Shown here piece after piece: positions 29,135 through 54,453 of a stretch of 64,000 nucleotides of DNA. Each line of letters starts with the position of its first letter. Position 1 is the first letter of the stretch. Under the pieces are notes generated by a model. The model saw only the letters and a program-made list of their open reading frames with translations. It was not told where the DNA came from and made no database searches. This stretch comes from an uncultured Phycisphaerales bacterium (lineage in GTDB: Bacteria; Planctomycetota; B15-G4). Made by a program: the position numbers and the translations under genes. The DNA is taken from NCBI GenBank assembly GCA_964490005.1, contig CAZBBB010000004.1:888-64887 (forward strand), given 5' to 3'.

Positions 29135-29640
29135 GCCCGCTGGCCGACCTGCGCCTGCTGGTGCTCGATGTCGACGGCGTCCTGACGGACGGCACGGTCG
29201 TGCTCGGCGCGGGCGAGGAGGAGCTCAAGGCCTTCCACACGCGCGACGGCGCCGGCATGGCGCTGTGGCGCGACGCCGGCCTGCAACTCACCTTCCTCAC
29301 CGGGCGCGGCGGCGCGGCGGTGCGGCGGCGCGCGCGCGAGCTGCGCCTCGACCGCATCTGGGAGCAGGCGCGCGACAAGAGCGCCGCCTTCGACGAGATC
29401 CTCGCGCACTACGGCGTCCGGGCCTCGCAGACCGCGGTCATGGGCGACGATCTGCCCGACCTCGCGATCCTCGCGCGCGCCGGGTTCTCCGCGGCGCCGG
29501 CCGATGCCGCCGCCGACATCCGCGAGCGCGTCGACCTGGTCACGCGCGCGCCCGGCGGCCGCGGGGCCGTGCGCGAACTCATCGAACACATCCTGCGCGC
29601 GACCGACCGCTGGAGCGCGTTGCTGGAGACCCTCCGATGA
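29131..29640 (+). CDS. kdsC: 3-deoxy-D-manno-octulosonate 8-phosphate phosphatase (HAD)
   Basis: 169 aa. LLVLDVDGVLTDG and GDDLPD motifs. ATGA overlap with kdsD. Confidence 0.85.
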   Translation: MSPLADLRLLVLDVDGVLTDGTVVLGAGEEELKAFHTRDGAGMALWRDAGLQLTFLTGRGGAAVRRRARELRLDRIWEQARDKSAAFDEILAHYGVRASQTAVMGDDLPDLAILARAGFSAAPADAAADIRERVDLVTRAPGGRGAVRELIEHILRATDRWSALLETLR

Positions 29641-32486: not shown

Positions 32487-34734
32487 CCGACGCGCACTGG
32501 GCGCCCTGCTCGTGCTGCTGCTCGGCGCCGCGGCCGCGCGGGCGCAGCAGCCGGCCGGCGAACCGGTCGAGATCCGCCCCGGCGGGCCGCAGTACGGCTT
32601 CCGCGACGGCGAGGAGTTCGTCTGGGTGTTCCTCGGCGGCGTCGAGGTGCTGCAGGCCGGCCGGCGCATCCAGGGCGACACGCTCGTGGCGGTGCTCGCC
32701 GCCGACGGCGCGGCGCCCGCCCCCCCCGCCCCGGACGCCAGCGCGCCGATGCTCGTCGGCCACGACCGGCTGCTCGAGCTGTTCTTCGACGGCCACGTGA
32801 GCGTCGAAGAGGGTGACGAGTCGATCTCCAACGCCTCCACCTACCACCTCGACAACCGCACGGGCGTCGCGACGGTGATCGAGGGCGAGCTGCGTTCGTC
32901 GGTCAAGGGGCGCGCGCCGCTCGTCGTGCGCTACGCCATGCTGCGCAAACTGCAGGACGGCACCTCCGAGATGGAGGACCTGACCTACACGACCTGCACG
33001 TACGACAACGCGCACTGGCACATCAAGACGCCCTGGGCGCGCATCGACCCGACGCCGGAGGGCGACATCCTCACGACCGGCGAGAACACCGTGCGGGTCG
33101 GCGGCGCCTCGGTGATGTGGTGGCCGGGCTACGACGTCAACCTCTCGGACGACGACATCCTGCTGCGGCGCCTGCGACTCGGCAGCAGTTCGCGCTTCGG
33201 GACCGAGATCCGCACCGAGTGGGGCGGCAACGCGTCGGAGTTCGCGACCGGGCTCGCGGGCCTGTTCGGGCACGAGGGGCGCGTGAGCGCCAAGTGGGAG
33301 ACCGAGGCCAGCTGGCTCAGTGACCGCGGCTTCTTCTTCGCGCCCGAGCTCAAGTACCACACCGAACACACGCGCGGCCGGCTGCTCGGCGCCTTCATCG
33401 ACGACCAGTCCTCGACCGACGCGCTCGACGTGCCGGTCACCGACAGCTCGCGCGGTCGCATCGACCTCGAGCACCGCACGCGGATCGACGACCGGCGGAC
33501 CCTCGACATCGAGGTCTCGCGCGAGAGCGACTTCAACTTCCTCAAGGAGTACTACGAGAACGAGTACCGCAACGACAAGCCGCAGGAGACCTACGTCTCG
33601 TTCCGCGACGTCGTCGACAACCACGCCAGGACGGCGCTCGTCAGCACGCGCCTCAACGACTTCCAGACGCAGGTCGAGTACCAGCCGCAGCTCGAGGCGC
33701 GCCAGGTCGGCGAGCCGCTGCCCTGGGGCGGCTTCCTGACGGCGCGCGAGTTCATCAGCAACGCGCGCCTGCTGCCCGACGACAGCACCGGCGCCCCCAG
33801 CGCCCGCACGCTGCGCGTCGGCGCGAGCGCCGAGGCCGCCTGGCCGATCGACCTGCAGAACGGCGACCGCATCACGGTGACGGCCGGCGGCGACCTGACC
33901 GGCTTCGACGACACGCTCGCCGACGGCTCGGAGCTGCGCCGCGCGGCCAGCGGCGCCGTCGAGTGGCGCCGCACCTACAGCGGCACGAGCGATGCGCGGA
34001 GCGAGACCTGGAACATCGACGGGCTGCGCCGGATCGTCGAGCCGCGTGTCGGGTACACCAACCGCTTCGAGGTCTCGCACGCCCCCGCCGAGCTGTTCGC
34101 GATCGATTCGGTCGAGACGCTGGCCGAGACCGAGGCGATCACGGTCGGCCTGCGCGACCGCATCCAGACGCACCAGGGCGGCCGCGTCGTGACGCTGCTC
34201 GACACCGACATCGAGCTGCCCTTCTTCCCGCACGCCTCGCGCGACAACGGCGACGACAACTACGGTCCGCTGATGCTCGACACCGTCTGGCGCCCGGGCG
34301 CGAACATCACGGGCCTGTCCGACGCGACGTTCCGCTGGCGGCTCGACTTCGACATCGAGGACCAGCACTACGTCGAGTCCTTCGCCTCCTTCTCCACGAT
34401 GATCGCCGAGGGCCGGCGCCTGTTCATCGGCAGTGCCAAGACCTTCCACGTGCAGAACTACATGACCTACGGCCTCGAGTGGCTGCTCAACAAGCGCTGG
34501 TCGGTGGCGCTCGTCTTCCAGGAGGACGAGCTGACGAACCAGACCGCGCGCAGCGGCATCATCCTGAGGCAGCTGGCGCACTGCTGGATCATCGACTACG
34601 AGATCAGCTCGCGGCGCGGCACGAGCACCGCCGGCAGCAACGAGGACGAAGTGCGCTTCACGCTGCACTTCCAGCCCATCACGGCGGATCCGGGAGCCGA
34701 GCTGGCCGACGTGCTCGGCGGCTCGATCTTCTGA
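32479..34734 (+). CDS. lptD: LPS-assembly outer membrane protein LptD
   Basis: 751 aa. Signal peptide (ALGALLVLLLGAAAARAQQ), an N-terminal OstA-like domain and a large C-terminal beta-barrel region. Overlaps the upstream gene by 8 nt. Confidence 0.8.
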   Translation: MASRRALGALLVLLLGAAAARAQQPAGEPVEIRPGGPQYGFRDGEEFVWVFLGGVEVLQAGRRIQGDTLVAVLAADGAAPAPPAPDASAPMLVGHDRLLELFFDGHVSVEEGDESISNASTYHLDNRTGVATVIEGELRSSVKGRAPLVVRYAMLRKLQDGTSEMEDLTYTTCTYDNAHWHIKTPWARIDPTPEGDILTTGENTVRVGGASVMWWPGYDVNLSDDDILLRRLRLGSSSRFGTEIRTEWGGNASEFATGLAGLFGHEGRVSAKWETEASWLSDRGFFFAPELKYHTEHTRGRLLGAFIDDQSSTDALDVPVTDSSRGRIDLEHRTRIDDRRTLDIEVSRESDFNFLKEYYENEYRNDKPQETYVSFRDVVDNHARTALVSTRLNDFQTQVEYQPQLEARQVGEPLPWGGFLTAREFISNARLLPDDSTGAPSARTLRVGASAEAAWPIDLQNGDRITVTAGGDLTGFDDTLADGSELRRAASGAVEWRRTYSGTSDARSETWNIDGLRRIVEPRVGYTNRFEVSHAPAELFAIDSVETLAETEAITVGLRDRIQTHQGGRVVTLLDTDIELPFFPHASRDNGDDNYGPLMLDTVWRPGANITGLSDATFRWRLDFDIEDQHYVESFASFSTMIAEGRRLFIGSAKTFHVQNYMTYGLEWLLNKRWSVALVFQEDELTNQTARSGIILRQLAHCWIIDYEISSRRGTSTAGSNEDEVRFTLHFQPITADPGAELADVLGGSIF

Positions 34735-40907: not shown

Positions 40908-42035
40908 TCAGCGCGCGCGGACGGCGACGTCGCGCAGCGCGGTGGCGAGGCGCTCGGCGAACGCGGCGATGTCGGCGTCGGTGTTGCTCGGGCCGACGCT
41001 GATGCGCAGCGCGCCCTCGGCGCGCTCTGCGGGCCCACCGAGCGCGGCGATCACGGCCGAAGGTCGTTGCGAGCCCGACATGCACGCCGAACCGTGCGAC
41101 GCGCTCACGCCCAGCAGGTCGAGGCGCTGCACGAGCACGCTGCCACGGCGCCCGGGAAACGAGACGTTGAGCGTGTTCGAAAGGACGCGATCGACGGGAG
41201 AGTTCACCACCAGATGGGGCTCGACGTCGGTCATGGCCTCGAGCAGCCGAGCGGTCCAACCCGACCAGCGCGGTTGCGCGGCGGGGAGTTCCCTCAGCGC
41301 CGTCTCGGCGGCGGCGGCGAAGGCGTACGCCAGGGCGGCGGCCTCGGTTCCGGGCCGCAGCCCGCCCTCCTGGCCGCCCGCGGATCCGCCGCGCGCGGGC
41401 GACGCGAGCGAGCGACGCACGATGAGCGCGCCGATGCCGACGGGTCCACCCAGCTTGTGGGCCGAGAGGGTCATCAAGTCGGCGCCCGACGCGCGGAAGG
41501 ACAGCGGCTCCTTGCCGAACGCCTGGCTCGCATCGACGTGGAACAGGGCGTCCGCGCGCGCGGCGGCGGCGGCGAGCGAGGGCAGGTCCTGAAGCGTGCC
41601 GAGCTCGTGGTTGGCGGCCGCGACGCTCACCAAGGCAGCGCGCGTGGAGCTTGGCGCGGCGATCGAAGCGGGATCGACGCGTCCCCATGAATCGATCGCA
41701 AGAGCGAGGGGGCGACCGGTGCGCAGAACCGCCGCGAGGACCGAGGGGTGCTCGATGGGTGCGCAGGCGGCCGCGCCTCCGGGCGGAGTGAACGCGAGGG
41801 CGATCGCGTTGCTCTCGGTTCCGCCGGACGTGAAGACCAGTTCGTCGCGCTCGCAGTCGATGCAGCGCGCCAGGCGCTCGCGGGCCTCCTCGAGCCAGCG
41901 ACGCGCGCGTCGGCCGTCGGCGTGCGCGCTCGAGGGGTTGCCTGCGAGGCCCTCCTCGAAGCACTGCCACAGGCTCGACCGCGCCTCGGGGCGCAGCGGG
42001 CAGGTCGCGTTGTGGTCGAGATACAGGCGCTTCAT
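40908..42035 (-). CDS. Cysteine desulfurase (class V aminotransferase, NifS/IscS-like)
   Basis: 375 aa. FTSGGTESN, PLP-lysine SAHKLGGPVG and active-site SGSACMS. Confidence 0.8.
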   Translation of the reverse strand: MKRLYLDHNATCPLRPEARSSLWQCFEEGLAGNPSSAHADGRRARRWLEEARERLARCIDCERDELVFTSGGTESNAIALAFTPPGGAAACAPIEHPSVLAAVLRTGRPLALAIDSWGRVDPASIAAPSSTRAALVSVAAANHELGTLQDLPSLAAAAARADALFHVDASQAFGKEPLSFRASGADLMTLSAHKLGGPVGIGALIVRRSLASPARGGSAGGQEGGLRPGTEAAALAYAFAAAAETALRELPAAQPRWSGWTARLLEAMTDVEPHLVVNSPVDRVLSNTLNVSFPGRRGSVLVQRLDLLGVSASHGSACMSGSQRPSAVIAALGGPAERAEGALRISVGPSNTDADIAAFAERLATALRDVAVRAR

Positions 42036-43168
42036 GCGCCGGAACCGAGCAGCTCTTCGTAGATCGACTCGTGGCGCGCGACCGCCGCCTGCAGCGAAAA
42101 GACCTCTCGGGCGCGCTGCGCGCTGGCGGCGCCGAGTTGCCGGCGCAACGGGACGTCGTCGACGAGTCGCCCGACGGCCTCGGCCATGCCGGCCGTGTCC
42201 CCCACCGCCCGCAGATAGCCGGTCACGCCCTCGACCACCACCTCGGGCAGCCCGCCGACGCGCGAGGCGACGACGGGAACCGCGCAGGACATGGCCTCGA
42301 GGGCGGCCAGGCCGAACGACTCGGACTCGCTGGGAAACAGCGCCACGTCGGCGACCGCCGTGATGTGCTCGGCGTCGGGGATCTCGCCGAGCATGCGCAC
42401 GCGTCCGGCCAGGCCGCGCCGGCAGGCCTGGTCGCGAACGTGCTGCAGGTCGGGCCCGTCGCCGACGAGCATCAGGACGACGCGGCGCTCGGCGCCGAGC
42501 CGCTCGAGCACGTCGACCGTGTCGATGGCGCGCTTCAGGGGGCGGAAGTTGCTCGTGTGCAGCAACAGCGTCTCGTCGTCGGCGGCGAGTTCCCGCCGCG
42601 CGCGATCATCCTCGCGCGGCCGGAACCTGCGGGGGTCGACGAAGTTGGGCACGACATGGATCGGCCCGTCGTAGGCGAAGACTTCTCGCGTCTGCGCCTC
42701 CAGCCACGACGAGACGGAGATGACCGCGTCGCTCTTCTGCAGGCCGAAGCGGATGACCTCGCGGTAGCTCGGGTCGCGGCCGAGGATCGTGATGTCGGTG
42801 CCGTGGAGCGTGGTGACGATGCGGGTGCGCGAGGCCGGGAGCATCTCCCGGGCCAGCCAGGCGGACACGGCGTGCGGCACCGCGTAGTGCACGTGCAGGA
42901 CGTCGAGCGGCGTCGTCGCCATCACTTCGCGCAGCGTGGACGAGAGCGCCAGGTCGTAGGGCGGGTAGCGGAACAGCGGGTAGGACGAGACGCTCACGCC
43001 GTGGAACGTCACGCCGTGACGCAGCGCCGACAGTCGCGCGGGCCGCGAATAGCTGAAGAGATGGACGTCGTGCCCGCGGTCCGCAAGTGCCAGGCCGAGT
43101 TCGGTGGCCATCACGCCGCTGCCGCCGTAGGTCGGATAGCAGACGATGCCGATGCGTCGCCGCTTCAC
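42032..43168 (-). CDS. bshA: GT4 glycosyltransferase, BshA-like (N-acetyl-alpha-D-glucosaminyl L-malate synthase)
   Basis: GTG start (VKRRRIGIVCYPTYGGSGV...), 378 aa. EX7E-type motif (ESESFGLAALEAMSCAVPVVAS). 4-nt overlaps on both sides. Confidence 0.65.
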   Translation of the reverse strand: MKRRRIGIVCYPTYGGSGVMATELGLALADRGHDVHLFSYSRPARLSALRHGVTFHGVSVSSYPLFRYPPYDLALSSTLREVMATTPLDVLHVHYAVPHAVSAWLAREMLPASRTRIVTTLHGTDITILGRDPSYREVIRFGLQKSDAVISVSSWLEAQTREVFAYDGPIHVVPNFVDPRRFRPREDDRARRELAADDETLLLHTSNFRPLKRAIDTVDVLERLGAERRVVLMLVGDGPDLQHVRDQACRRGLAGRVRMLGEIPDAEHITAVADVALFPSESESFGLAALEAMSCAVPVVASRVGGLPEVVVEGVTGYLRAVGDTAGMAEAVGRLVDDVPLRRQLGAASAQRAREVFSLQAAVARHESIYEELLGSGA

Positions 43169-43902
43169 GGTGCGTGCCCGGTCTGTCCGTGGCCGCGCCC
43201 GCGGACGGCCGCCACCGGATCGTCGATCGCGAGCGGGCCCTCGACGATGTAGGGCTCTCCGTAGGTGGCGCCGATCATCGCGCCGCAGGTGCGATTGCCG
43301 GCGGCGATGGCCTCGAGGAAGTCCGGCGCGGAAATCGTCGTTCGCGGCTCGGTCGACGACGGATCGTGCAACTGGCTCGCGTGGGCGCGCACGGCCTCGA
43401 GCTTGCGTTCGAACACGTGGCTGATGTCGACGATCAGGGTCGGCTGGATCGGCTCGCGGGACGGATAGAACAGCACCCGACCGGGGCGCCACGGGTCGCC
43501 GGACGGACCGACGCGCGCGCACCCCGCCAGAAAGCGCGCTTCCTTCACGAGTTGACCGGTGCGCGCATGGTCCGGGTGGTCGTCGCTGATCCAGGGAGCG
43601 ACGACGAGCCGGGGGCGGTGGCGCCGGATCGCGTCGATCACGAGGTCGCGCGAGCTTCGATCCGATTCGATCGCACCGTCCGGAAGCCCGAGGCATTCGC
43701 GGAAGGCGAGTCCGAGGAGTTGGGCGCCGCGCGCCGCTTCCCCGGCGCGCCGATCGCTGGAGCCGCGCGTGCCCGATTCGCCGGCCGACATGTCGATGCC
43801 CCCCACCGTGCGTCCGCGCTCGCGCAGCGCGAGCACGAGACCGCCCGCGCAGATCTCGATGTCGTCGGGGTGCGGGCCGAAGACGAGGACATCAACCATC
43901 GC
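43165..43902 (-). CDS. bshB: LmbE/PIG-L family deacetylase, BshB-like
   Basis: Internal Met MVDVLVFGPHPDDIEICAGG (PIG-L HPDDE motif). 245 aa. Confidence 0.7.
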   Translation of the reverse strand, partial: AMVDVLVFGPHPDDIEICAGGLVLALRERGRTVGGIDMSAGESGTRGSSDRRAGEAARGAQLLGLAFRECLGLPDGAIESDRSSRDLVIDAIRRHRPRLVVAPWISDDHPDHARTGQLVKEARFLAGCARVGPSGDPWRPGRVLFYPSREPIQPTLIVDISHVFERKLEAVRAHASQLHDPSSTEPRTTISAPDFLEAIAAGNRTCGAMIGATYGEPYIVEGPLAIDDPVAAVRGRGHGQTGHAP

Positions 43903-45355
43903 GGCTCTCCGGGTCGGTGGTGTGGAGCACGTGGCGTGGCGGATCCAGCGGGCGCGCCAGGTCGACGAGTCGCCGCCCCCATGATGCAGGCCCTCCGTGC
44001 TCGAGCGCATCCGGAAGCCACGCGAGGACGGTGTCTTGGGGGCGGCCGCGCGGGCTGAGCGTCGCGGTCAGTAGCGAGCGCGGGCGGGTGTGCCAGGCGC
44101 GCTGTTCGGCCAGCCTGCGCATCGCGGACTCCGTCGACCGCCTCCAGCGCTCCGCGCGCGCCGCGATGCGCGCAGGTCCGTCGTCGAACGTGCGGGCGAA
44201 GTCGCGCAGGGCTTCACGCACGGCGTGCTCGGCAGGACCCGACGTGGACCGGGACGCGCCGAGGTCGAGCCCTTCCAGCCCGCCAGGGAGGCTGCCGAGG
44301 AGCGCCGGAGACACGAAGCTCGCTTCGAGGCGCGGCACCAGGACGGGGGCGATCAGTCCGAACTCCTGGTGCAGCAAACGTGCCTCACCCAGATAGCGCA
44401 GTTCGCTCGGCCCGCAGACTTGAGCGACCACCGGCAGCGACGCGGCCTGGACGAGGGGCCTGAGCGCGGCGTGGGGCGAGAAGTCTTCCGGCGATCGATC
44501 GTGGCGGCGGGCGGCCTCCCGATCCTCCGCAGCCACTCGCCGGCGTCGCCCGCCCCGCGACTCCATCACGAGCGGTCGCGGATCGCCGGCATCGAAGGAA
44601 GGCTGGAGACGGGCGGTCCGGGCGAGGTGCTGACCGCGCTCCAGGCTCGCGCGCAGTTGGTCCGGGCGGGTCAGGGCGCGGCGGATAATCTCATCGCCCA
44701 GCGGGCGCAGCGCATGCGCCTCGACCACGCGAAGCCCAAGAGGACCGAACGCGGCAAGCAGAGCGGCGCCATGGACTCTGGAGAGCTCGCAGAGCGCTGA
44801 ACTGTGAACGGATGTCGACTTTAAAACATCATTTAATTGATCACAACATGATTTCAAAGCACTTGTTAGAACCGAATCGTGATTCGTGGCGTACGTGCTG
44901 CGCCACGAAGCGTCGGAGCCGGGCAGGATGCGTGCCCTGAATCTCCGAATGCGGCCATCCAAATCATCGACAAGATCAATGTGATCCACCTCTGAAGAGT
45001 CGTGATCTTCTGTTGCGAGAAGGAACACCGGGACAACCGGACGAGACCAGGCGGACGAGAGATCGCGGGCGAGGGCGACCGCCGTGGCCGCCTTGTGGGC
45101 GATCAGGGCGGCGCCCGCTGCGAAGCAGGGCTGCTGTCCCGCGAGGACGACGAGTGCCCCCGAGGGAGCGGCTTCCCCGCGGAGAACGGCAAAGCCGCCG
45201 TTCCGTCCGGGATCGAGGGCCTGCGCGACGCGCTCGAAGCTTGCGAGCCCGGGCGCATGCCCCATCAGGGCCTGCAGCGACGGATCGCCCCCCCACCAAG
45301 CCTCCGTCCAGGACGCGTGCACCCTCGGCCTGGGCAGCCGACGCTCAGTGCTCAA
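43892..45355 (-). CDS. bshC: Bacillithiol biosynthesis cysteine-adding enzyme BshC-like
   Basis: 487 aa. LAGQQPCF...IAHKAATAVALA...PVVPVFLLATEDHDSSEVDH matches the recalled BshC N-terminal signature (GGQQ..G..HK...PVIPVFW.A.EDHD). Operonic with bshB-bshA. Confidence 0.55.
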   Translation of the reverse strand: MSTERRLPRPRVHASWTEAWWGGDPSLQALMGHAPGLASFERVAQALDPGRNGGFAVLRGEAAPSGALVVLAGQQPCFAAGAALIAHKAATAVALARDLSSAWSRPVVPVFLLATEDHDSSEVDHIDLVDDLDGRIRRFRARILPGSDASWRSTYATNHDSVLTSALKSCCDQLNDVLKSTSVHSSALCELSRVHGAALLAAFGPLGLRVVEAHALRPLGDEIIRRALTRPDQLRASLERGQHLARTARLQPSFDAGDPRPLVMESRGGRRRRVAAEDREAARRHDRSPEDFSPHAALRPLVQAASLPVVAQVCGPSELRYLGEARLLHQEFGLIAPVLVPRLEASFVSPALLGSLPGGLEGLDLGASRSTSGPAEHAVREALRDFARTFDDGPARIAARAERWRRSTESAMRRLAEQRAWHTRPRSLLTATLSPRGRPQDTVLAWLPDALEHGGPASWGRRLVDLARPLDPPRHVLHTTDPESRDG

Positions 45356-48103: not shown

Positions 48104-48895
48104 TTAGACGGGTTCGCCCTCGGTCAGGGCAGCCAGCAGGCGGGCAAGCGCCTCGTTCTGGATTTGACGCACGCGTTCGCGGGTCAGACCCAACTCCTGG
48201 CCGATCTCCTTGAGGGTCATCGGCTCATCGTAGCCGAGACCGAAGCGCATCCGCAGAATCCGGACCTGCCTCTCATCCAGAGAGTCGAGGAGCAGCAACA
48301 TCCGCCGCTGCTCCTGTTGCTCAAGCATCGTCCTGCCCGGGTCGGGACTGTTCGGGTCGACGATGACCTCCGTGAGGTCGCCGTTCTCCTCGTCCTGCGC
48401 GAAGGACTGGGTATAGCGCGACGCGGTTCGCATGGCGGCCCGTACGGCGACGACGGCGTCGTCCTTCAGCTTCATGTGTCGGCCGACCTCCCCCGGCGAG
48501 GGCTCGCGGCCGAGCTCGAGCACGAGACGCTCCGTCGTCTGTTGCCAGCGCGACATGAGCTCGATCATGTAGGAAGGAATGCGCACGGTCTTCACCGTGT
48601 TCGTCAGCGCCCGGCGAATCGACTGCTTGATCCACCAGGTCGCGTAGGTCGAGAACCTGCAGTTCGCGTCGGGGTCGAACTTCTCGACGGCGCGCATGAG
48701 GCCGACGTTGCCTTCCTCGATGAGGTCGAGCAGCGCCATGCCGCGGTTCATGTAGCGCTTCGCGATGCTGACGACAAGCCGGAGGTTGGCGGCGGCAAGG
48801 TCGTTGCGCGACTGGCGACAGCCGAGCCGCACGCCGCGCGCGAGTTCCTTCTCCTGGTCAGCCGTCAGCAGCTTGACGCGGTTGATCTCCCGCAA
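48104..48895 (-). CDS. Group-2 sigma-70 family sigma factor (RpoS/RpoD-like without region 1.1)
   Basis: 263 aa. Region 1.2 [11 protein letters not shown]; region 2 [41 protein letters not shown]; region 3 [11 protein letters not shown]; region 4 [23 protein letters not shown]. Confidence 0.8.
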
Positions 48896-49047
48896 GTAAA
48901 TCTCGATCGACTGGTCGCCGGGAATCGGAGTCGCTCCGTGGAGAGGACACAGCGGGGCCCTCGTCGACTGCGTGCTGCGGCGGGCTTGAGGCGAAACCGG
49001 CCTCCGACCGACGAGAGTGCTATGCTGACGGAATCCGGGTCGGGCTC

Positions 49048-50343
49048 ATGACGCAGCAGGCCAAGTCACGCGACATCATCGTGCGGGAGGATGAATTCGG
49101 CCGCCTGCTCGCGGAGGCCGGCCTGAGCTGCGGCGCTTGGGCGGCGACGCTGCTGCGTGACCGTCGGCTGCTGGCCGATGAAGACGTGGTCGCCGCGTTC
49201 GTGCATCGGGCGCATGAGCTCGAGGCGTTCCTCGACGACTTCGGTGCACGCGAGAATCGAACGTTCGTGATGCTCGGCGAACTCGCGGCATCCCTGCACG
49301 GGCTCGCGACCGTGAAGACCAATGCCCTGCACCTGACCGCGCGGCTGCCGCGCTACCATGTGCTCATCGACAGCGGCCCGCTGGCTGCCGCGCTCGAGCA
49401 GGCGCACGTGATTCTGGACGACAGCCTGACCGCCCTGCTCGAAGCCTTCGCCAACGAGAGCCGCCGTTGGCTGCGAGACGACCTCGAGATCGCGCTGCCG
49501 ACGGGCGGACTGTCATCGCAGCGGCAACTCCTTCCGAGAAACCTCGACGAAGGCGAGACGGTCGACGAGCGCCAGCACATCGCGGAGATCGGTGCCCGGT
49601 TTCTGGCCATTCTTGCGACAAGCCGGAGCCTGGAACTCGGCCACAAGCGACCGATCAGGGAACTGCGGGACTTCGTGGCCGAGCACGCCACGGAGGCTCG
49701 CTGCCGCTGGTACGAGTCCTCCGTGCACAGCATTCAGTCCATGTACGACACCTACGTGCTGAACACCGCGGTGGAGCGCGACCACCCCTGGTTGAAGTCG
49801 ATGCGCGGACACGCGTCGGTTGCATTGCACCTGCTCGAGATGGCGACGGGGCTGGTGCACTTCTACGAGCGGCACGAGAACGACATCCGACATGAGCGGG
49901 CACGCCAAGCCATCGCGAAACTCGTGGCAAAGGACGAAGTCCTCGACGTCGCTGTTAATATAAGCCTAAGGCAGGCATATATTTACGTTGAGTCTGCGGC
50001 GGCAACGGCCAGTCAGATCTTGCGCACGTTCGTGAGGCATGGCGTCGCCAACCTGCGGCTTCTGCCGGGCATCACGCTGCACGCTCGGCCGCTCGCGCTC
50101 GTCGCCCAGGTTGCGAGGCATTACGGCACGCCGCTCGAGATCGACTTCGACGGCGACTCATGTGCCGCGGGGTCGCTCATGAGCCTGATCCTGCTCGGGG
50201 GCAAGCACCCCCGGCCCGTCGAGATCACGGCGCGAGGCGATGCCAGGGCGCTCCGAGACCTTGAAATTCTCTTCGCGGCGGGCCTTGGCGAGGGCGGCCG
50301 GGCATTGCCCCCGGAGCTCGACTACCTGCGCGCCAGGAATTAA
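49048..50343 (+). CDS. Protein with unknown 340-aa N-terminal domain fused to C-terminal HPr-family phosphocarrier domain
   Basis: 431 aa. The C-terminus LRLLPGITLHARPLALVAQVARHYGTPLEIDFDGDSCAAGSLMSLILLGGKHPRPVEITARGDARALRDLEILF matches HPr (His in GLHARPA; Ser region; GxxxxAxG). Confidence 0.6.
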   Translation: MTQQAKSRDIIVREDEFGRLLAEAGLSCGAWAATLLRDRRLLADEDVVAAFVHRAHELEAFLDDFGARENRTFVMLGELAASLHGLATVKTNALHLTARLPRYHVLIDSGPLAAALEQAHVILDDSLTALLEAFANESRRWLRDDLEIALPTGGLSSQRQLLPRNLDEGETVDERQHIAEIGARFLAILATSRSLELGHKRPIRELRDFVAEHATEARCRWYESSVHSIQSMYDTYVLNTAVERDHPWLKSMRGHASVALHLLEMATGLVHFYERHENDIRHERARQAIAKLVAKDEVLDVAVNISLRQAYIYVESAAATASQILRTFVRHGVANLRLLPGITLHARPLALVAQVARHYGTPLEIDFDGDSCAAGSLMSLILLGGKHPRPVEITARGDARALRDLEILFAAGLGEGGRALPPELDYLRARN

Positions 50344-50383: not shown

Positions 50384-50399
50384 TGTTTCACGTGAAACG
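50384..50399. promoter_or_regulatory. parS: parS centromere-like site
   Basis: TGTTTCACGTGAAACG matches the parS consensus TGTTTCACGTGAAACA at 15/16 positions. It lies about 85 nt upstream of parB. Confidence 0.8.
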
Positions 50400-50481: not shown

Positions 50482-51369
50482 ATGGGCGTGGATCGCAGGC
50501 TTGGGCGCGGGCTGGACAGCCTGATCTCCAGGACGACGGTAGAGGTAGGCGCCGGATCTCCTGCTGGGAGGCTCGTGGAGATCCCGGTGGCGATGGTCGA
50601 CCCGAACCCGGATCAGCCTCGCAAGTCGATGAATGAAGCCACTTTGGATGGATTGGCTGCCTCGATTAAGGCGCATGGGGTGCTGCAGCCGATCGTGGTC
50701 CAAGCCAGAGGGGCGCGTTATGAGCTCGTCGCCGGTGAGCGCCGACTTCGGGCTTCGAAGCGAGCGGGCCTCGAGACCGTTCCCGCGATCATCCTGGAGG
50801 TCGGGCCGGACAAGTCACTTGAGCTGGCGCTGCTCGAGAACATCCAGCGGGAGGACCTGGGAGCACTGGAAGAGGCATCGGCCTACGACGCCCTCATCGA
50901 ACGACTCGGCCTGACGCATCAGGCGCTTGCCGACCGCATCGGCAAGAGCAGGGCCTTCGTCACGAACAGTCTCAGGCTGCTGGAGCTGCCAGATGCCGTC
51001 AAGCGCCTGGTGCAGAGCGGAGCGCTTGCAGCCGGGCAGGCTCGTGCGCTGCTTGGCGCTCCGACTCCCGCCGATGTTGCCAGCCTCGCCATTGAGGCGG
51101 CGCGCAACCATTGGTCAACGCGCGAAGTTGAGAGCAGGGTGCGAGCCCTTTCGAAAGCCCGTGGGGGGCGCAAGGCGCGCCGCGTACACACCGAGATGAA
51201 GTCGCGATCAAGCGAAGAACTACGAACGTTATTCGGAACTAAGGTGACAGTAAGGGAGAACGATGGGCGCGGCGAGGTTGCGCTGGCGTTCTATTCGGCG
51301 CAGGATCGCGACAGACTGCTCCACTTGCTGCTCATCGGCGGCCGCAGTGCGGAGCGCCAGGGCGGCTAG
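50482..51369 (+). CDS. parB: Chromosome partitioning protein ParB/Spo0J
   Basis: 295 aa. GRGLDSLI N-terminus, LQPIVV, GERRLRAS box and HTH, plus a C-terminal dimerisation domain. Confidence 0.85.
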   Translation: MGVDRRLGRGLDSLISRTTVEVGAGSPAGRLVEIPVAMVDPNPDQPRKSMNEATLDGLAASIKAHGVLQPIVVQARGARYELVAGERRLRASKRAGLETVPAIILEVGPDKSLELALLENIQREDLGALEEASAYDALIERLGLTHQALADRIGKSRAFVTNSLRLLELPDAVKRLVQSGALAAGQARALLGAPTPADVASLAIEAARNHWSTREVESRVRALSKARGGRKARRVHTEMKSRSSEELRTLFGTKVTVRENDGRGEVALAFYSAQDRDRLLHLLLIGGRSAERQGG

Positions 51370-51458: not shown

Positions 51459-51827
51459 TCAGGCCCCGGCGGTCGCGGGGGGGAAGCTGTCGACCGCCTG
51501 CAGGAGCTTTCGCATCCAGGGCGTTGTCGCATGCGACGGATTGCGAGCGACGGACTGCTCGGCGAGCTGGCGAGCGCGTTCGAGCGACCCGGCATCGCCC
51601 TTGTCGAACAACATCACGGCGAGTTGGTAATCCAACCACGGCATGGCTTCGGTCGACTCCGCTTTCACGCGGGCGGCTTCAAGGGACTCGACGGTCGCCC
51701 CGGAACTCGTGGCCGCGAAGAGCTCGTCCCAGCCCGCGCCCGTAGAGGCGGCCAACTGATAGCGAACGACCACCACGATCACCGCGGCGACCGAGACAGC
51801 GAGAAGAAGTCGAATGCCCTTGCTCAT
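51459..51827 (-). CDS. Small N-terminally anchored membrane protein, hypothetical
   Basis: 122 aa. TM LLLAVSVAAVIVVVV, then a helical soluble part. Confidence 0.4.
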   Translation of the reverse strand: MSKGIRLLLAVSVAAVIVVVVRYQLAASTGAGWDELFAATSSGATVESLEAARVKAESTEAMPWLDYQLAVMLFDKGDAGSLERARQLAEQSVARNPSHATTPWMRKLLQAVDSFPPATAGA

Positions 51828-52296
51828 GCTTTATTGGTCTTTTGAATGATGTATAGAATGATGTTAATGAAACGTTGATTCCATAATACATGCATCGCGA
51901 TCGACGCGTCCGAGGACTGCAATCAAGTCACCGCTCGTCGATCGACATCCGAAGCGCGTTTCGCTGCACGCGCTGCGCCTGCCGGCAAGGATGCGGCATG
52001 GAGGGCGCGTTCCCGGAAGCCAGCCGAGATCCACGGCCAACATCGGGGCACGCCGGACGCACGCATCGGAGACCGCAACACGCCGGCTCATTGTGATGCG
52101 CCTGAGTGCGCGGCACAAGCGAGGTCGTTCGGGACGATGTCCTTTCCATGACGGGGGCGTCGGACACCTTGTCGCGGTCGAGGGGCGTGAGCCAAGATCC
52201 GTTCCTGCACCTACGGCGGCCGCTCGGCCCTCCCCTGCTCGACCTGTCGTTCCCGAGCCCTCCGAGACCCGCGCCGCTTCCCCCAGGAGTCGTCCC

Positions 52297-54453
52297 ATGC
52301 TGATCGCCCTCGTTGCCGCCGCCGCCCTCGGCGTCGCGCCTGCCCCCAAGATCGATGACCCCGCAGCGCTGCTGCCGGCGGACACGCTGATCTACTTCGG
52401 CACGCACAGCGTGCAGGCGAGCGCCGCGGCGAATTCGAAGTCCGCGATGCACCTGATCCTCGGCGAGCCCGAAGTGAAGGCCTTCATGCAGAAGCCCGTC
52501 GCGGGCGCCGACCGCATGCTCAGGGCGCTTCTCGATGACGCCGGCGCCGACCCGGCCCAAGCGGAGCGCCTTTCGGTCTCGAAGCTCATGGCCGGCGAGA
52601 GCGTCGCTCCGATCGGCAAGCTGTTCGTCGCGCTGACGCATGTCGGACTGCCGGTGCCGGGCGACGGACAGCTCGGCGCGCCCGACGTGGGGCTCATCGT
52701 CGGAGTGGAACTGCTCGACGCCAACGACCTCGGGCTCGTCCGCCAGCTGTGGGACAAGATCCCGCTGCTGGAGGAGACCGGAACGCACGCCGGACAGGCG
52801 TACTTCCAGAAGACGAGCCCGGAGGGGATGGTGATCGGCCTCTCCTTCGTCGGCAACCTCGCCATCGTCAGCATGTCGATGAAGTCGCTGCGCGCCGCGC
52901 TCGATCGCGCGGCCGGACAGGGCGCGTCGCTCGCCGAAGCCGCGGACTACGCCAAGCTCGTCACGACGGCCGGCGGCATCGAAGCCGGAGGGTCGAGCTG
53001 GATCGTGCGCGCCGCGGACGTCTCGAAGCTCATCCGCGGCGTGATGAGCATGGCGCTCGCGATGGAGGCGGCCGACGAGCCGGAGCTTTCCGGCAAGCTG
53101 CTGGCGGTGTACGACAGCATCGGGCTGGATGCGCTCACCTGGCTGGGAGGCGTGTCGCACCGCGACCTCGCCGGCCGCGTGCATTCGACCAGCGCCGTCC
53201 ATGTCGATCCGTCGATCAAGGGTCTGATCGGAGACTGCCTCGGCGCCGGCATGACGCTCGACGCGGCGCGTCTCGACTCGGTGCCGGCCAACTGCCTGTC
53301 GATGACGGCGGGCTCGATCGACGTCCTTCCGCCGATCTACGACTTCGCCATGAAGGCGGTCGAGACCTTCGCTGCCGAGGAGTTCGGCGAGATCCAGGCG
53401 ACGATCAAGGGCGTGATGGGCGAGTACGACCTGAGGAACGACCTGCTCGCCAACGTGCACGGCGCCTTCCTGAGCTACTCGATGCCCGGCGAAGGCTTCC
53501 CGGGCACGCCGACGTCGGTCATGCGCATGGAAGTGCGCGACGGCGAGCGGTTCCTCGGCGCGATCTCGCAGCTCGCGAGCGGCCTGAGCGCGATGTTCTT
53601 CGCCGGGCAGCCCGTCACGCTCAAGACGAGCGAGCACGAGACCTGGGCCTTCAACGAGCTCGACATCTCGCGCACGCCGCTCGCCATGTCGATGATGCAG
53701 CCCGCCTTCGTCATCGACGGCCAGGAACTCGTGATGAGCCTCGAGTCGGGCAAGGCGCTCAAGACGGCGCTCAACGGGCTCGGCGGCGCCACGCCGCTGT
53801 CGAAGAACGCCGACCTGGCCGCCTTCGTGGCTTCCGCGAAGCGTCGCGGCGAGCTGTCCGCGCTGACCTATTCCGACAACGCACGCACCTTCGGCGCGCT
53901 CTACGGGCAGGTCGCGGGAATGGCCGGCATGATGGCGGGCGGATTGGGCGACCTGCCCGTCGATCTCGCGCTCATGCCGAGCGAGCAGTCGATCACCAAG
54001 CATCTCACGTCGAGCTACTCGGCGGCCTTCACGATGGACGGCGGCCGCACGTACGTCGGCGTCAGCGAATCCCAGTTCCAGGTCAGCGACTTCATGCCGC
54101 TGGCGGTGCTGGGAGGAATGCTCGTCGCTTCGGTCGCGACGGGCGAGTCGATCGAGGCGCCTCCGGTCGAACTCGACCCGGCCGAACGGGTGCAGCGCGA
54201 CCTGGCCGAGATCAAGGCCGGGATGACGGTGTTCAAGCTGGCGGAGAACCGCTACCCCGACTCGATCGCGGACCTGATCAAGCCGTTGGCGGACTTCCCC
54301 GAGGGTTGCCTGAACCGCGACAGCGTGCCGGTGGACCCGTGGGGCAACGCCTACTCCTTCAGGCTGAACGAGAAGGGCAAGCCGGTCGTGTGGAGCTTCG
54401 GCCCGAACGGCGTCGATGACTCCGGCAGCGGCGACGACATCGTCAAGGGCTGA
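52297..54453 (+). CDS. Secreted 718-aa protein with C-terminal T2SS pseudopilin GspG-like (T2SSG) domain
   Basis: Internal Met MLIALVAAAALGVAPAP (Sec signal) of ORF 51991..54453. The C-terminus LAEIKAGMTVFKLAENRYPDSIADL...DPWGNAYSFRLNEKGKPVVWSFGPNGVDDSGSGDDI resembles the GspG/PulG C-terminal domain. No GFTLIE prepilin leader. Confidence 0.55.
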   Translation: MLIALVAAAALGVAPAPKIDDPAALLPADTLIYFGTHSVQASAAANSKSAMHLILGEPEVKAFMQKPVAGADRMLRALLDDAGADPAQAERLSVSKLMAGESVAPIGKLFVALTHVGLPVPGDGQLGAPDVGLIVGVELLDANDLGLVRQLWDKIPLLEETGTHAGQAYFQKTSPEGMVIGLSFVGNLAIVSMSMKSLRAALDRAAGQGASLAEAADYAKLVTTAGGIEAGGSSWIVRAADVSKLIRGVMSMALAMEAADEPELSGKLLAVYDSIGLDALTWLGGVSHRDLAGRVHSTSAVHVDPSIKGLIGDCLGAGMTLDAARLDSVPANCLSMTAGSIDVLPPIYDFAMKAVETFAAEEFGEIQATIKGVMGEYDLRNDLLANVHGAFLSYSMPGEGFPGTPTSVMRMEVRDGERFLGAISQLASGLSAMFFAGQPVTLKTSEHETWAFNELDISRTPLAMSMMQPAFVIDGQELVMSLESGKALKTALNGLGGATPLSKNADLAAFVASAKRRGELSALTYSDNARTFGALYGQVAGMAGMMAGGLGDLPVDLALMPSEQSITKHLTSSYSAAFTMDGGRTYVGVSESQFQVSDFMPLAVLGGMLVASVATGESIEAPPVELDPAERVQRDLAEIKAGMTVFKLAENRYPDSIADLIKPLADFPEGCLNRDSVPVDPWGNAYSFRLNEKGKPVVWSFGPNGVDDSGSGDDIVKG

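Follow-up and report, generated by a model that had tools for sequence, protein, structure and literature searches.

HPr and its paralogues serve as central hubs of regulation. In other bacteria Ser46 of HPr is the target of HprK/P, and the DhaM–DhaL pair illustrates that a domain of HPr type can work with a phosphoryl acceptor that has no part in transport. To our knowledge, the outputs of transporter-less regulatory phosphotransferase systems (PTS) are largely unknown outside Proteobacteria and Firmicutes. Two other kinds of system enter the comparison made here: partner-switching modules, in which a phosphoprotein and a phosphatase work jointly with a sigma factor, and CHAD, a polyphosphate-binding all-helical domain. 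In Escherichia coli, dephospho-HPr binds the anti-sigma factor Rsd (PDB 4xwj; PMC6055147), the phosphorylation state of His15 deciding the binding partner. The HPr paralogue NPr is dephosphorylated by SixA (PMC7948535), and in Planctomycetales Ntr-type PTS genes are present while the sugar PTS is almost absent (PMC13104625, PMC2405797).

The locus described here lies in a 64,000-nucleotide stretch of DNA, analysed as a whole (the window), and encodes a protein in which a novel all-α domain (the N domain) precedes an HPr domain. For its family we establish the identity of the domains, the conservation of the active site, the obligate nature of the fusion, the novelty of the N-domain fold and the conservation of gene neighbourhoods. 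The fusion protein shares with HPr and NPr (PF00381; ptsH, ptsO) the same fold (TM ~0.8), the LHARP loop, an equivalent of Ser46 and the GD motif ahead of helix 3; however, these relatives are free proteins of ~85–90 residues, whereas the HPr unit here is fused to a 330-residue domain and followed by an extra C-terminal tail. Multiphosphoryl proteins (FPr/FruB, DhaM, EI–HPr–EIIA) likewise hold HPr inside a larger polypeptide, but the fusion partner here is not EIIA (Fru, Man or Glc), EI or Dak. As in the HPr–Rsd pair, a module of HPr type is linked with an all-helical protein and with a factor of the sigma-70 family; unlike Rsd, the helical partner is covalently attached, twice the size and non-homologous, and binding to the sigma factor is suggested solely by gene adjacency.

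Partner switching (the sigma B RsbV–RsbW–RsbU system and Chlamydia Rsb) has a parallel in most relatives of our locus, where the genes for a phosphorylatable protein and a phosphatase accompany that for a sigma factor. The parts are different: STAS, GHKL-kinase and PP2C domains are all missing here, HPr is the phospho-module (on His or Ser), and the place of the phosphatase is taken by an ApaH/YfcE-like metallophosphoesterase that the window lacks. Among soluble proteins, Foldseek ranks CHAD (6qva, 3e0s) nearest to the N domain, CHAD being of similar size, all-helical and furnished with conserved His and Arg, but the match (TM 0.26–0.30, probability ≤0.54) is at noise level for helical proteins, and the conserved N-domain residues are mixed acidic and basic, in contrast to a basic polyphosphate-binding surface. 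Database labels for the family are limited to 'HPr family phosphocarrier' or 'hypothetical', and a full-text literature search returned no paper that describes this fusion.

Architecture of the fusion protein

The fusion gene (49048..50343, plus strand, stop codon included; defined by the ORF call, homologues and an AF2 model) encodes 431 residues from an ATG start, with a gene-like pattern of GC by codon position (GC1/2/3 = 0.72/0.44/0.82). Homologues aligning across the full length of the protein fall into 120 clusters of 29–64% identity, which marks it as a genuine gene, as opposed to an ORF arising by chance in high-GC DNA. The AF2 model of the whole protein is confident (pLDDT 90.5, pTM 0.87). 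In it, the last N-domain helix stops at residue 328 and the first HPr strand begins at residue 331, leaving a linker of two residues. Through this linker and a conserved C-terminal tail, the two domains are predicted to be rigidly coupled. The tail is specific to the family (50293..50340, plus strand), with an alignment consensus of LPxxLxYLR; its conserved positions are P421, L424, Y426 and L427, with E415 placed just before it. Our favoured reading of this architecture is a cytoplasmic, self-contained phospho-switch of an uncharacterised family.

The HPr domain

The first-pass annotation had described a 431-residue ORF ending in an HPr domain, which is correct: residues 331–415 (50038..50292, plus strand) are assigned to HPr by PF00381, matches to HPr entries in the PDB, Foldseek and AF2 secondary structure, and the HPr motifs that it quoted are present. 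The C-terminal segment passes the Pfam PF00381 cut-off (29.6 bits against 23, residues 344–409) and falls under that of NCBIfam TIGR01003 (31.9 bits against 47.9). Searches with phmmer match the domain to solved HPr structures, upon which Foldseek superposes it with TM values of 0.72–0.82. AF2 builds a complete β-α-β-β-α-β-α unit over residues 331–410, composed of strands 331–336, 363–367, 370–373 and 393–398 and helices 346–359, 377–386 and 399–410.

Alignment places the equivalents of HPr His15, Arg17 and Pro18 in the active-site loop codons H345-A346-R347-P348 (50080..50091, plus strand), within an LHARP loop at residues 344–348; the His15 equivalent is H345 (codon 50080–50082). H345, R347 and P348 are unchanged in every one of the full-length homologues aligned (115/115), and the strict His motif is matched by 257 of 262 family proteins of at least 400 residues. 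One representative, P0264, is without the active-site histidine. Aligned with the sequences of HPr structures, S376 (50173..50175, plus strand) is the equivalent of Ser46; it is invariant in 115/115 short-form homologues and varies in a long form of the protein, which carries a ~90-residue insertion within the HPr domain.

The N-terminal domain

Residues 1–330 (49048..50037, plus strand) form an all-α domain of ~13 helices, as judged by alignments and AF2, without a recognised fold or family. That this part holds no recognisable motif had been noted at first pass, and wider searches agree: the query protein has no match here in Pfam or NCBIfam, 27 family members each scanned at E values up to 10 gave nothing consistent for the domain, and a domain profile run with hmmsearch against all PDB sequences gave no consistent match. 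Foldseek against PDB folds also returned no match (best TM 0.30). Hits to DUF4186 (the best, E 0.05), histone and nucleoporin families were inconsistent or noise.

Specific candidates were compared by hhalign, using as templates single E. coli sequences (Rsd, YgiF, DhaL, EI and DhaM), which limits sensitivity; all probabilities were below 0.5%. Homology to Rsd is rejected (0.09%, no Pfam PF04353 match), Rsd chains are absent among the Foldseek matches listed, and these two routes (hhalign to Rsd, and Foldseek) detect no resemblance between the N domain and any anti-sigma domain. CHAD (PF05235) is rejected likewise, with no Pfam match, 0.2% against YgiF and Foldseek E values of 0.6 or higher, as is DhaL/Dak2 (PF02734), with 0.4%, no Pfam match and no place among the N-domain Foldseek matches. 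EI and DhaM reached 0.08% each. The domain is not a known PTS component by any of these measures (Pfam, NCBIfam, and hhalign to EI, DhaM and DhaL), a possibility that the first-pass annotation had raised against its own proposal. Internal duplication was also discarded, hhalign of the two halves giving a probability of 1.4%.

Approximately 25 polar residues of the N domain are invariant or near-invariant, are retained down to 29% overall identity and cluster on four helices. The invariant set includes E59, D63, R68, N70, E78, R99, E216, H227, Q230, S231, D234, T235, E243, R253, H271, Y273, R275, H276 and E277. The model places a further conserved motif, LPRN (L162, P163), in a loop of low confidence. 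On alignment evidence, this polar conservation resembles that of a pocket for catalysis or ligand binding more than that of the usual sensor or anti-sigma surface. The earlier proposal of an uncharacterised HPr-linked regulator is borne out in part: an intact HPr site is fused to a non-PTS domain, but the conservation of that domain is more pocket-like than that of a typical sensor.

Mean-field DCA on the family alignment (Neff 199) is underpowered, and the share of top pairs that are inter-domain, about one-third, equals random expectation. On the HPr side, the top inter-domain pairs map to the His loop, helix 1 and helix 2 (338, 342, 353–356, 362 and 378); on the N-domain side they map to residues 12–16, F73, L195, 269–295 and 324–330, beside the invariant motifs. 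P421 of the tail is coupled to N-domain residues 269–295. Top pairs within HPr agree with what we take to be the contacts of known HPr structures. The resulting picture of the domain interface is coherent, and suggestive only.

Distribution and gene neighbourhood

The N-domain family comprises 448 clusters at 50% identity, with no fewer than 587 matching stretches across 185,579 species-representative genomes. Members are also found in Nitrospinae, Accumulibacter, Verrucomicrobiota and deltaproteobacterial MAGs. The N domain is essentially always fused to HPr, an obligate fusion across phyla; we found no convincing stand-alone N-domain protein, and the shorter family members inspected resemble truncated fragments. 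Neighbours are lineage-specific, and no partner gene common to all phyla was found. Long-form members sit in a LysR–HAD–unknown–fusion–flavodoxin block; the polyphosphate accumulator Accumulibacter is one host of this form.

In the window, the fusion gene is divergent from a gene for a group-2-like sigma-70 factor (48104..48895, minus strand) that Pfam and NCBIfam place in the sigma-70 family, with regions 1.2, 2, 3 and 4 and no region 1.1. The two ORFs are 152 nt apart by ORF coordinates, in agreement with the ~150 nt and the lack of region 1.1 reported at first pass. By sequence the protein fits group 2 (Pfam matches to r1_2, r2, r3 and r4, none to r1_1), a class whose definition also includes non-essentiality. 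It scores under every NCBIfam equivalog cut-off, and its similarity to PDB entries is equal for SigA/RpoD and RpoS. Relatives conserve an in-frame peptide, SIEIYLREI, encoded upstream, so the actual start probably lies a few codons upstream of 48895, at a non-canonical codon. Aligning 10 related intergenic regions reveals two conserved elements in the divergent intergenic region (48896..49047): a CTTGAG box (48985–48990) and an extended −10-like element, TGCTATGCT (49018–49026), 22 nt upstream of the fusion-gene ATG. Both are putative promoter elements.

The sigma gene is divergent from the fusion gene in all 73 related loci with a sigma gene in reach (mostly Planctomycetota, the fusion proteins being 34–60% identical), with a gap of no more than 500 bp in 67. 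Measured against hemW–sigma (45/62) and fusion–parB (direct adjacency in 12/67), the sigma–fusion pair is the tightest in the origin-proximal block. This block is generally syntenic, and part of the pairing is thus lineage inertia. Co-occurrence of fusion and sigma gene in related genomes, put forward as a check at first pass, holds for these loci but not for members in other phyla (L004, L005, L086 and L088), which have no adjacent sigma gene and lie in unrelated neighbourhoods; the biochemistry at the core of the family is thus unlikely to be specific to sigma factors.

An ApaH/YfcE-like metallophosphoesterase gene lies directly downstream of the fusion gene in 54 loci. It is co-directional and 15–75 bp past the fusion-gene stop in three loci, and in one representative, P0164, the phosphoesterase is fused in-frame to the fusion protein. 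In the window, no such gene accompanies the fusion gene. What follows instead, ahead of parB (50482..51369, plus strand; Pfam ParB_N and HTH_ParB), is a parS site, TGTTTCACGTGAAACG (50384–50399), which departs from the consensus at one position; by chance, 0.29 matches would be expected. The position just upstream of parS/parB, pointed out at first pass, is accurate for the window but not conserved, given the low frequency of direct parB adjacency, and parS, with parB, is probably context outside the fusion/sigma system.

No ptsI, ptsN or rapZ occurs in the window. Using tblastn with E. coli EI, EIIA-Glc, EIIA-Ntr, RapZ, NPr, HPr and RpoN, nothing was found outside the fusion gene within 6–10 kb of it in 88 genome loci and 80 metagenome loci; hprK was sought through the Pfam tables of individual loci only. 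The sole PTS-type gene nearby, by Pfam, is a partial PTS_EIIA_2 at the edge of L005, 8 kb away.

Discussion

We tentatively propose that the fusion protein acts as a built-in phospho-switch with the sigma factor as its output in the Planctomycetota lineage, and place the chances of this somewhat short of even. Enzyme I of a regulatory PTS of the Ntr type, with genes at another genomic site, would phosphorylate H345, and the ApaH-like metallophosphoesterase, a neighbour in most relatives, may reset it. The HPr face (His loop, helices 1 and 2) would rest on the N domain, and the phosphorylation state would therefore alter N-domain activity or binding. By analogy, the output in the Planctomycetota lineage could be the divergently encoded group-2-like sigma factor. 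Counting against this reading are the dissimilarity of the N domain to Rsd, its pocket-like conservation, the lack of an adjacent sigma gene in other phyla, the absence of EI, EIIA and RapZ genes near the gene in the loci searched by tblastn, and the phosphoesterase missing from the window. If the sigma link is true, it would connect metabolic state with transcription in a new way and offer an entry into gene regulation in the poorly understood Planctomycetota. A bolder version, which is speculative and which we think unlikely, would make the family a new class of sigma regulator, an HPr phospho-sensor hard-wired to a helical sigma-binding domain and reset by a dedicated metallophosphoesterase; were it so, PEP/energy state would be coupled via the regulatory PTS to sigma availability in a deep Planctomycetota lineage. 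In a broader form of this reading, the N domain would be a new effector or enzyme fold dependent on phospho-histidine, spread over hundreds of species in several phyla.

The main rival to the sigma-linked switch makes the N domain a novel enzyme and HPr its built-in phosphoryl shuttle. Phospho-H345 would act as phosphate donor to, or acceptor from, a small molecule (substrate or cofactor) that binds in the pocket, by a logic akin to DhaM–DhaL/DhaK or to a non-PEP route of HPr phosphorylation; sigma adjacency in Planctomycetota would then be co-regulation or plain synteny. The ~25 polar residues held on four helices at 29% identity argue for such an activity, as does a fusion that is obligate across phyla independently of the sigma gene. 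Phosphatase-type neighbours that differ by lineage (metallophosphoesterase versus HAD hydrolase) and a DCA signal that puts the His loop near the conserved motifs point the same way. However, the N domain has no similarity to a known enzyme fold or family, DhaL included, no metabolic or transport genes are conserved alongside it across lineages, and its all-α fold has no recognisable nucleotide- or metal-binding motif and so offers no candidate substrate. We regard the enzyme as rather unlikely, though a serious contender; it would, if true, constitute a new phospho-histidine-dependent activity.

If HPr served here for structure or protein binding, no longer phosphorylated, and the protein acted as a scaffold or regulator outside any phosphorelay, this would account for the lack of PTS genes nearby in ~170 loci, the sub-threshold TIGR01003 score, the loss of the histidine in P0264 and the tolerance of the long form for a ~90-residue insertion inside HPr. 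Yet there is commonly no linkage between PTS genes and their regulatory targets, and the active-site His, Arg and Pro are invariant in the 115 homologues and near-universal in the wider family; this invariance is hard to explain without phosphoryl chemistry, and we deem loss of phosphorylation improbable. A role at the origin or in segregation, with ParB/parS or DnaA, is suggested by the position of the gene between dnaA and parS–parB, the latter following directly in the window and its closest relatives, with dnaA ~8.4 kb away; in most loci other genes are inserted before parB, members in other phyla are near neither parB nor dnaA, and the fusion protein has no detected DNA-binding or ParB-interacting motif, rendering this role very improbable. 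Less credible still, the protein could be a conventional sugar-PTS multiphosphoryl transfer protein, its N-terminal part a diverged EIIA, EI or DhaM-like domain. Fusions of HPr to EIIA or EI domains are frequent (PMC2405797), and there is a weak NCBIfam FruB match, limited to the HPr part; but no EIIA, EI or Dak domain is detected (hhalign <0.1% to EI and DhaM), the all-α N domain is unlike EIIA folds, no EIIB or EIIC genes lie nearby, and the sugar PTS is nearly absent from Planctomycetales (PMC13104625).

Two cultured bacteria, Saltatorellus ferox Poly30 and Engelhardtia mirabilis Pla133, are among the hosts of the 73 related loci, and both carry the sigma–fusion–phosphoesterase arrangement.

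An HPr domain fused to a new helical domain

The fusion gene is called as an ORF of 431 aa (49048..50343, plus strand), with a gene-like codon-position GC of 0.72/0.44/0.82. Homologues of its product form 120 clusters, 29–64% identical over the full length and mostly from Planctomycetota MAGs; database names for them go no further than "HPr family phosphocarrier protein" or "hypothetical protein". By fold, the C-terminal domain belongs to the HPr family, as the first-pass annotation had proposed: Pfam PTS-HPr matches residues 344–409 above its gathering score (29.6 versus 23), solved HPr structures are matched by sequence, and in an AlphaFold2 model (28 input sequences; pLDDT 90.5, pTM 0.87) residues 331–410 form a complete β-α-β-β-α-β-α unit that superimposes on HPr structures with TM 0.72–0.82. 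The NCBIfam HPr score is 31.9, under the cut-off of 47.9. H345, R347 and P348 (equivalents of His15, Arg17 and Pro18) are invariant in 115 of 115 full-length homologues, as is S376, the Ser46 equivalent. The modelled linker to the N domain (residues 1–330) is two residues long, running from a helix end at 328 to a strand start at 331, and the C-terminal tail of the protein is conserved and family-specific.

The N domain is all-α, with about 13 helices modelled at pLDDT 90 either alone or within the full protein, and contains a low-confidence loop (142–167) with a conserved LPRN motif at its end. Scanning the fusion protein against Pfam and NCBIfam gave no family match for residues 1–330, and Pfam scans of each of 27 family members, at E values up to 10, gave no N-domain match; nor did an N-domain profile match any PDB sequence. 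Foldseek found no match in the PDB or BFVD, the best soluble neighbour being CHAD at a noise-level TM of 0.28. Homology to the E. coli proteins Rsd, YgiF (CHAD), DhaL, EI or DhaM was rejected, with hhalign probabilities below 0.5% for each of these single-sequence templates. Given the lack of library matches and these hhalign values, the N-terminus is not a known PTS component. No curated family in Pfam or NCBIfam covers the domain, and a literature search found no paper describing an N domain–HPr fusion. The fusion protein is an HPr-domain fusion containing a domain that is itself new. Around 25 N-domain polar residues remain fully or almost fully conserved in homologues as distant as 29% identity (E59, D63, R68, N70, E78, R99, E216, R220, H227, Q230, S231, D234, T235, E243, R253, H261, H271, Y273, R275, H276, E277 and others), and the domain is highly constrained.

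The His loop, helix 1 and helix 2 make up the canonical partner-binding face of HPr. Mean-field DCA (325 sequences, Neff 199; underpowered) places these elements and tail residue P421 in its top inter-domain pairs, coupled to segments of the N domain flanking its invariant motifs. The top intra-HPr pairs (26–33, 14–83 and 3–64, HPr numbering) fit contacts known from HPr structures. The couplings are at most suggestive of the partner-binding face and tail contacting the N domain near its invariant motifs.

Distribution and length forms of the family

Searching 1.84 billion representatives with a profile of the N domain only recovered 448 clusters (366 at E ≤ 1e-10), and every match, apparently truncated fragments aside, carries HPr after the domain. 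At least 587 matching stretches were found in GTDB species-representative genomes. Cultured hosts include the planctomycetes Saltatorellus ferox Poly30 and Engelhardtia mirabilis Pla133; others are Nitrospinae, deltaproteobacterial, Thermodesulfobacteriota and Marinimicrobia MAGs. Because the N domain is always found with HPr, fragments aside, across such widely spread hosts, the fusion is obligate and old.

The window protein belongs to a short form of about 430–450 aa. A long form (about 505–550 aa; proteins P0136–P0260), with Candidatus Accumulibacter and Verrucomicrobiota among its hosts, has an insertion of about 90 aa within the HPr domain just past the Ser46 position; His15 is kept and Ser46 is not invariant there. 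In sediment metagenomes (loci L094–L173) the long form lies in a conserved block of its own, which reads LysR, HAD hydrolase, an uncharacterised 285-aa protein, fusion, flavodoxin and FabA-like. At the locus of the polyphosphate accumulator Candidatus Accumulibacter (L086), the long form is divergent from an FHA-adenylate/guanylate cyclase gene. Family members outside these settings and the sigma-paired loci described below have unrelated neighbour genes.

A conserved sigma–fusion gene pair

The window is a chromosomal origin region of about 70% GC, with the gene order gyrA, gyrB, dnaN, dnaA, a bshABC-like cluster, pyrF, a class-I glutamine amidotransferase, hemW, the sigma/fusion locus, parS, parB, pyrB, pyrI and purF. 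Every factual element in the first-pass annotation (the ORF, HPr, the divergent sigma factor, parS and parB) was recovered. Of 84 related genome loci, all non-redundant, 73 have the same sigma factor upstream of the fusion gene. It is on the opposite strand in every one of the 73 and no more than 500 bp away in 67; the median between tblastn ends is 224 bp. Set against hemW–sigma adjacency (45/62 loci) and direct fusion–parB adjacency (only 12/67) in the same locus set, this makes the sigma–fusion pair the most conserved adjacency of the origin-proximal block. Loci keeping the pair encode fusion proteins 34–60% identical. The 11 sigma-less loci comprise one that ends at a contig edge and the ten most distant (29–32% identity), mostly non-Planctomycetota. 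At one further locus, L035, which is labelled Proteobacteria, a sigma gene is 4.2 kb away.

An ApaH/YfcE-like metallophosphoesterase gene lies immediately 3′ of the fusion gene in 54 loci (L003, L014, L016 and L019–L085), covering most of the Planctomycetota relatives, usually convergent and, in three, co-directional 15–75 bp past the stop. The 246-aa example at L003:9359–10099 (minus strand) has intact catalytic motifs, with 3rqz its closest solved structure (1.6e-40). One representative, P0164, carries the enzyme as an in-frame fusion whose 3′ part looks frame-shifted. The metallophosphoesterase is absent from the entire 64-kb window, and the nearest relatives are also without it at the locus.

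The sigma-70-family factor (48104..48895, minus strand) retains regions 1.2, 2, 3 and 4 and lacks region 1.1. It is equally close to SigA/RpoD and RpoS, meeting no NCBIfam equivalog cut-off. The true start is probably not the listed TTG, because an 11-residue in-frame peptide upstream of it (in the stretch 48896–48935, minus strand) matches relatives. No ATG, GTG or TTG codon is present there; either the start is non-canonical (ATT, ATC or CTG) or the MAG sequence is in error. A true start further upstream would leave a gap to the fusion gene of less than 152 nt. Across ten close relatives this intergenic region conserves a CTTGAG box (48985–48990) and an extended −10-like TGnTAnnCT element (TGCTATGCT; 49018–49026), 22 nt before the fusion start codon. 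As the spacing between them varies (at least 29 nt), they are unlikely to form a single promoter; the box may be an operator or part of the divergent sigma promoter.

Candidate function

The family is found widely, always as a fusion and under strong constraint, and cultured strains make it testable; its mechanism we infer. Sequence and model together establish an HPr domain with intact predicted phosphoryl chemistry, permanently attached to a helical domain that is both new and highly conserved. H345 would take up a phosphate, for which Enzyme I of a regulatory PTS is the most plausible donor, and the phospho-state would then change N-domain activity or binding, with the divergently encoded group-2-like sigma factor as the putative output in the Planctomycetota lineage. 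We tentatively favour this phospho-switch, a reading that takes its sigma link from gene order, because the sigma adjacency is exceptionally conserved, because most relatives have a sigma/phosphoprotein/phosphatase trio mirroring partner-switching logic, and because HPr–Rsd and SixA–NPr provide precedents. Dephospho-HPr binds the anti-sigma factor Rsd (PDB 4xwj; PMC6055147), and SixA is a dedicated phosphatase acting on the HPr paralogue NPr (PMC7948535). Any likeness to HPr–Rsd or a partner switch is at most one of working, and every homology test against those families was negative for the fusion protein. The Planctomycetales PTS is of the regulatory kind, with sugar PTS nearly absent (PMC2405797, PMC13104625).

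The main rival casts the N domain as a new enzyme with HPr as its phosphoryl shuttle, which we consider possible if somewhat doubtful. Polar-residue conservation in the domain is enzyme-like, and family members in phyla without an adjacent sigma gene keep the same set of invariant residues. Enzyme and sigma readings are compatible: the core biochemistry might be catalysis or ligand binding, with a sigma-related read-out in Planctomycetota. The strict His-loop motif is found in 257 of 262 family proteins of at least 400 aa, the histidine being clearly lost in only one, and a non-phosphorylated scaffold seems improbable. A near-consensus parS (TGTTTCACGTGAAACG, one mismatch; 50384–50399) lies 83 nt upstream of parB, with no parA gene beside parB in the window. 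We think a role in segregation or at the origin very improbable. Least credible is an ordinary multiphosphoryl PTS protein. FPr, DhaM and EI-HPr-EIIA are described HPr-fusion classes, and the window protein falls in none. By tblastn, EI, EIIA, RapZ and RpoN were found neither in the window nor within 6–10 kb at about 170 loci, the exception being one partial PTS_EIIA_2 gene, which lies at the L005 edge; Pfam annotation of several related loci includes no HPr-kinase family.

Other features of the window

A bacillithiol-type cluster (40908–45355, minus strand), beside dnaA and conserved in relatives, contains a class-V aminotransferase, a GT4 glycosyltransferase (BshA-like) and a BshC-like Rossmann protein. 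A PIG-L deacetylase (BshB-like) is annotated in relatives only; its counterpart here is presumed to be the ORF at 43165–44010 (minus strand). At L003, a ParA/MinD-like ATPase gene sits inside the bsh cluster, several kb from parB. Two adjacent large plus-strand ORFs (29265–32486, 1073 aa, GC3 0.91; 32479–34734, 751 aa, GC3 0.97) look like genes by GC3 and have no Pfam match at E ≤ 1e-4. In the window and close relatives, parB is followed by genes for a conserved 122-aa protein with no Pfam match (51459–51827, minus strand) and an 820-aa protein (51991–54453, plus strand) in which nothing is recognisable except a C-terminal pseudopilin (T2SSG) domain of type II secretion.
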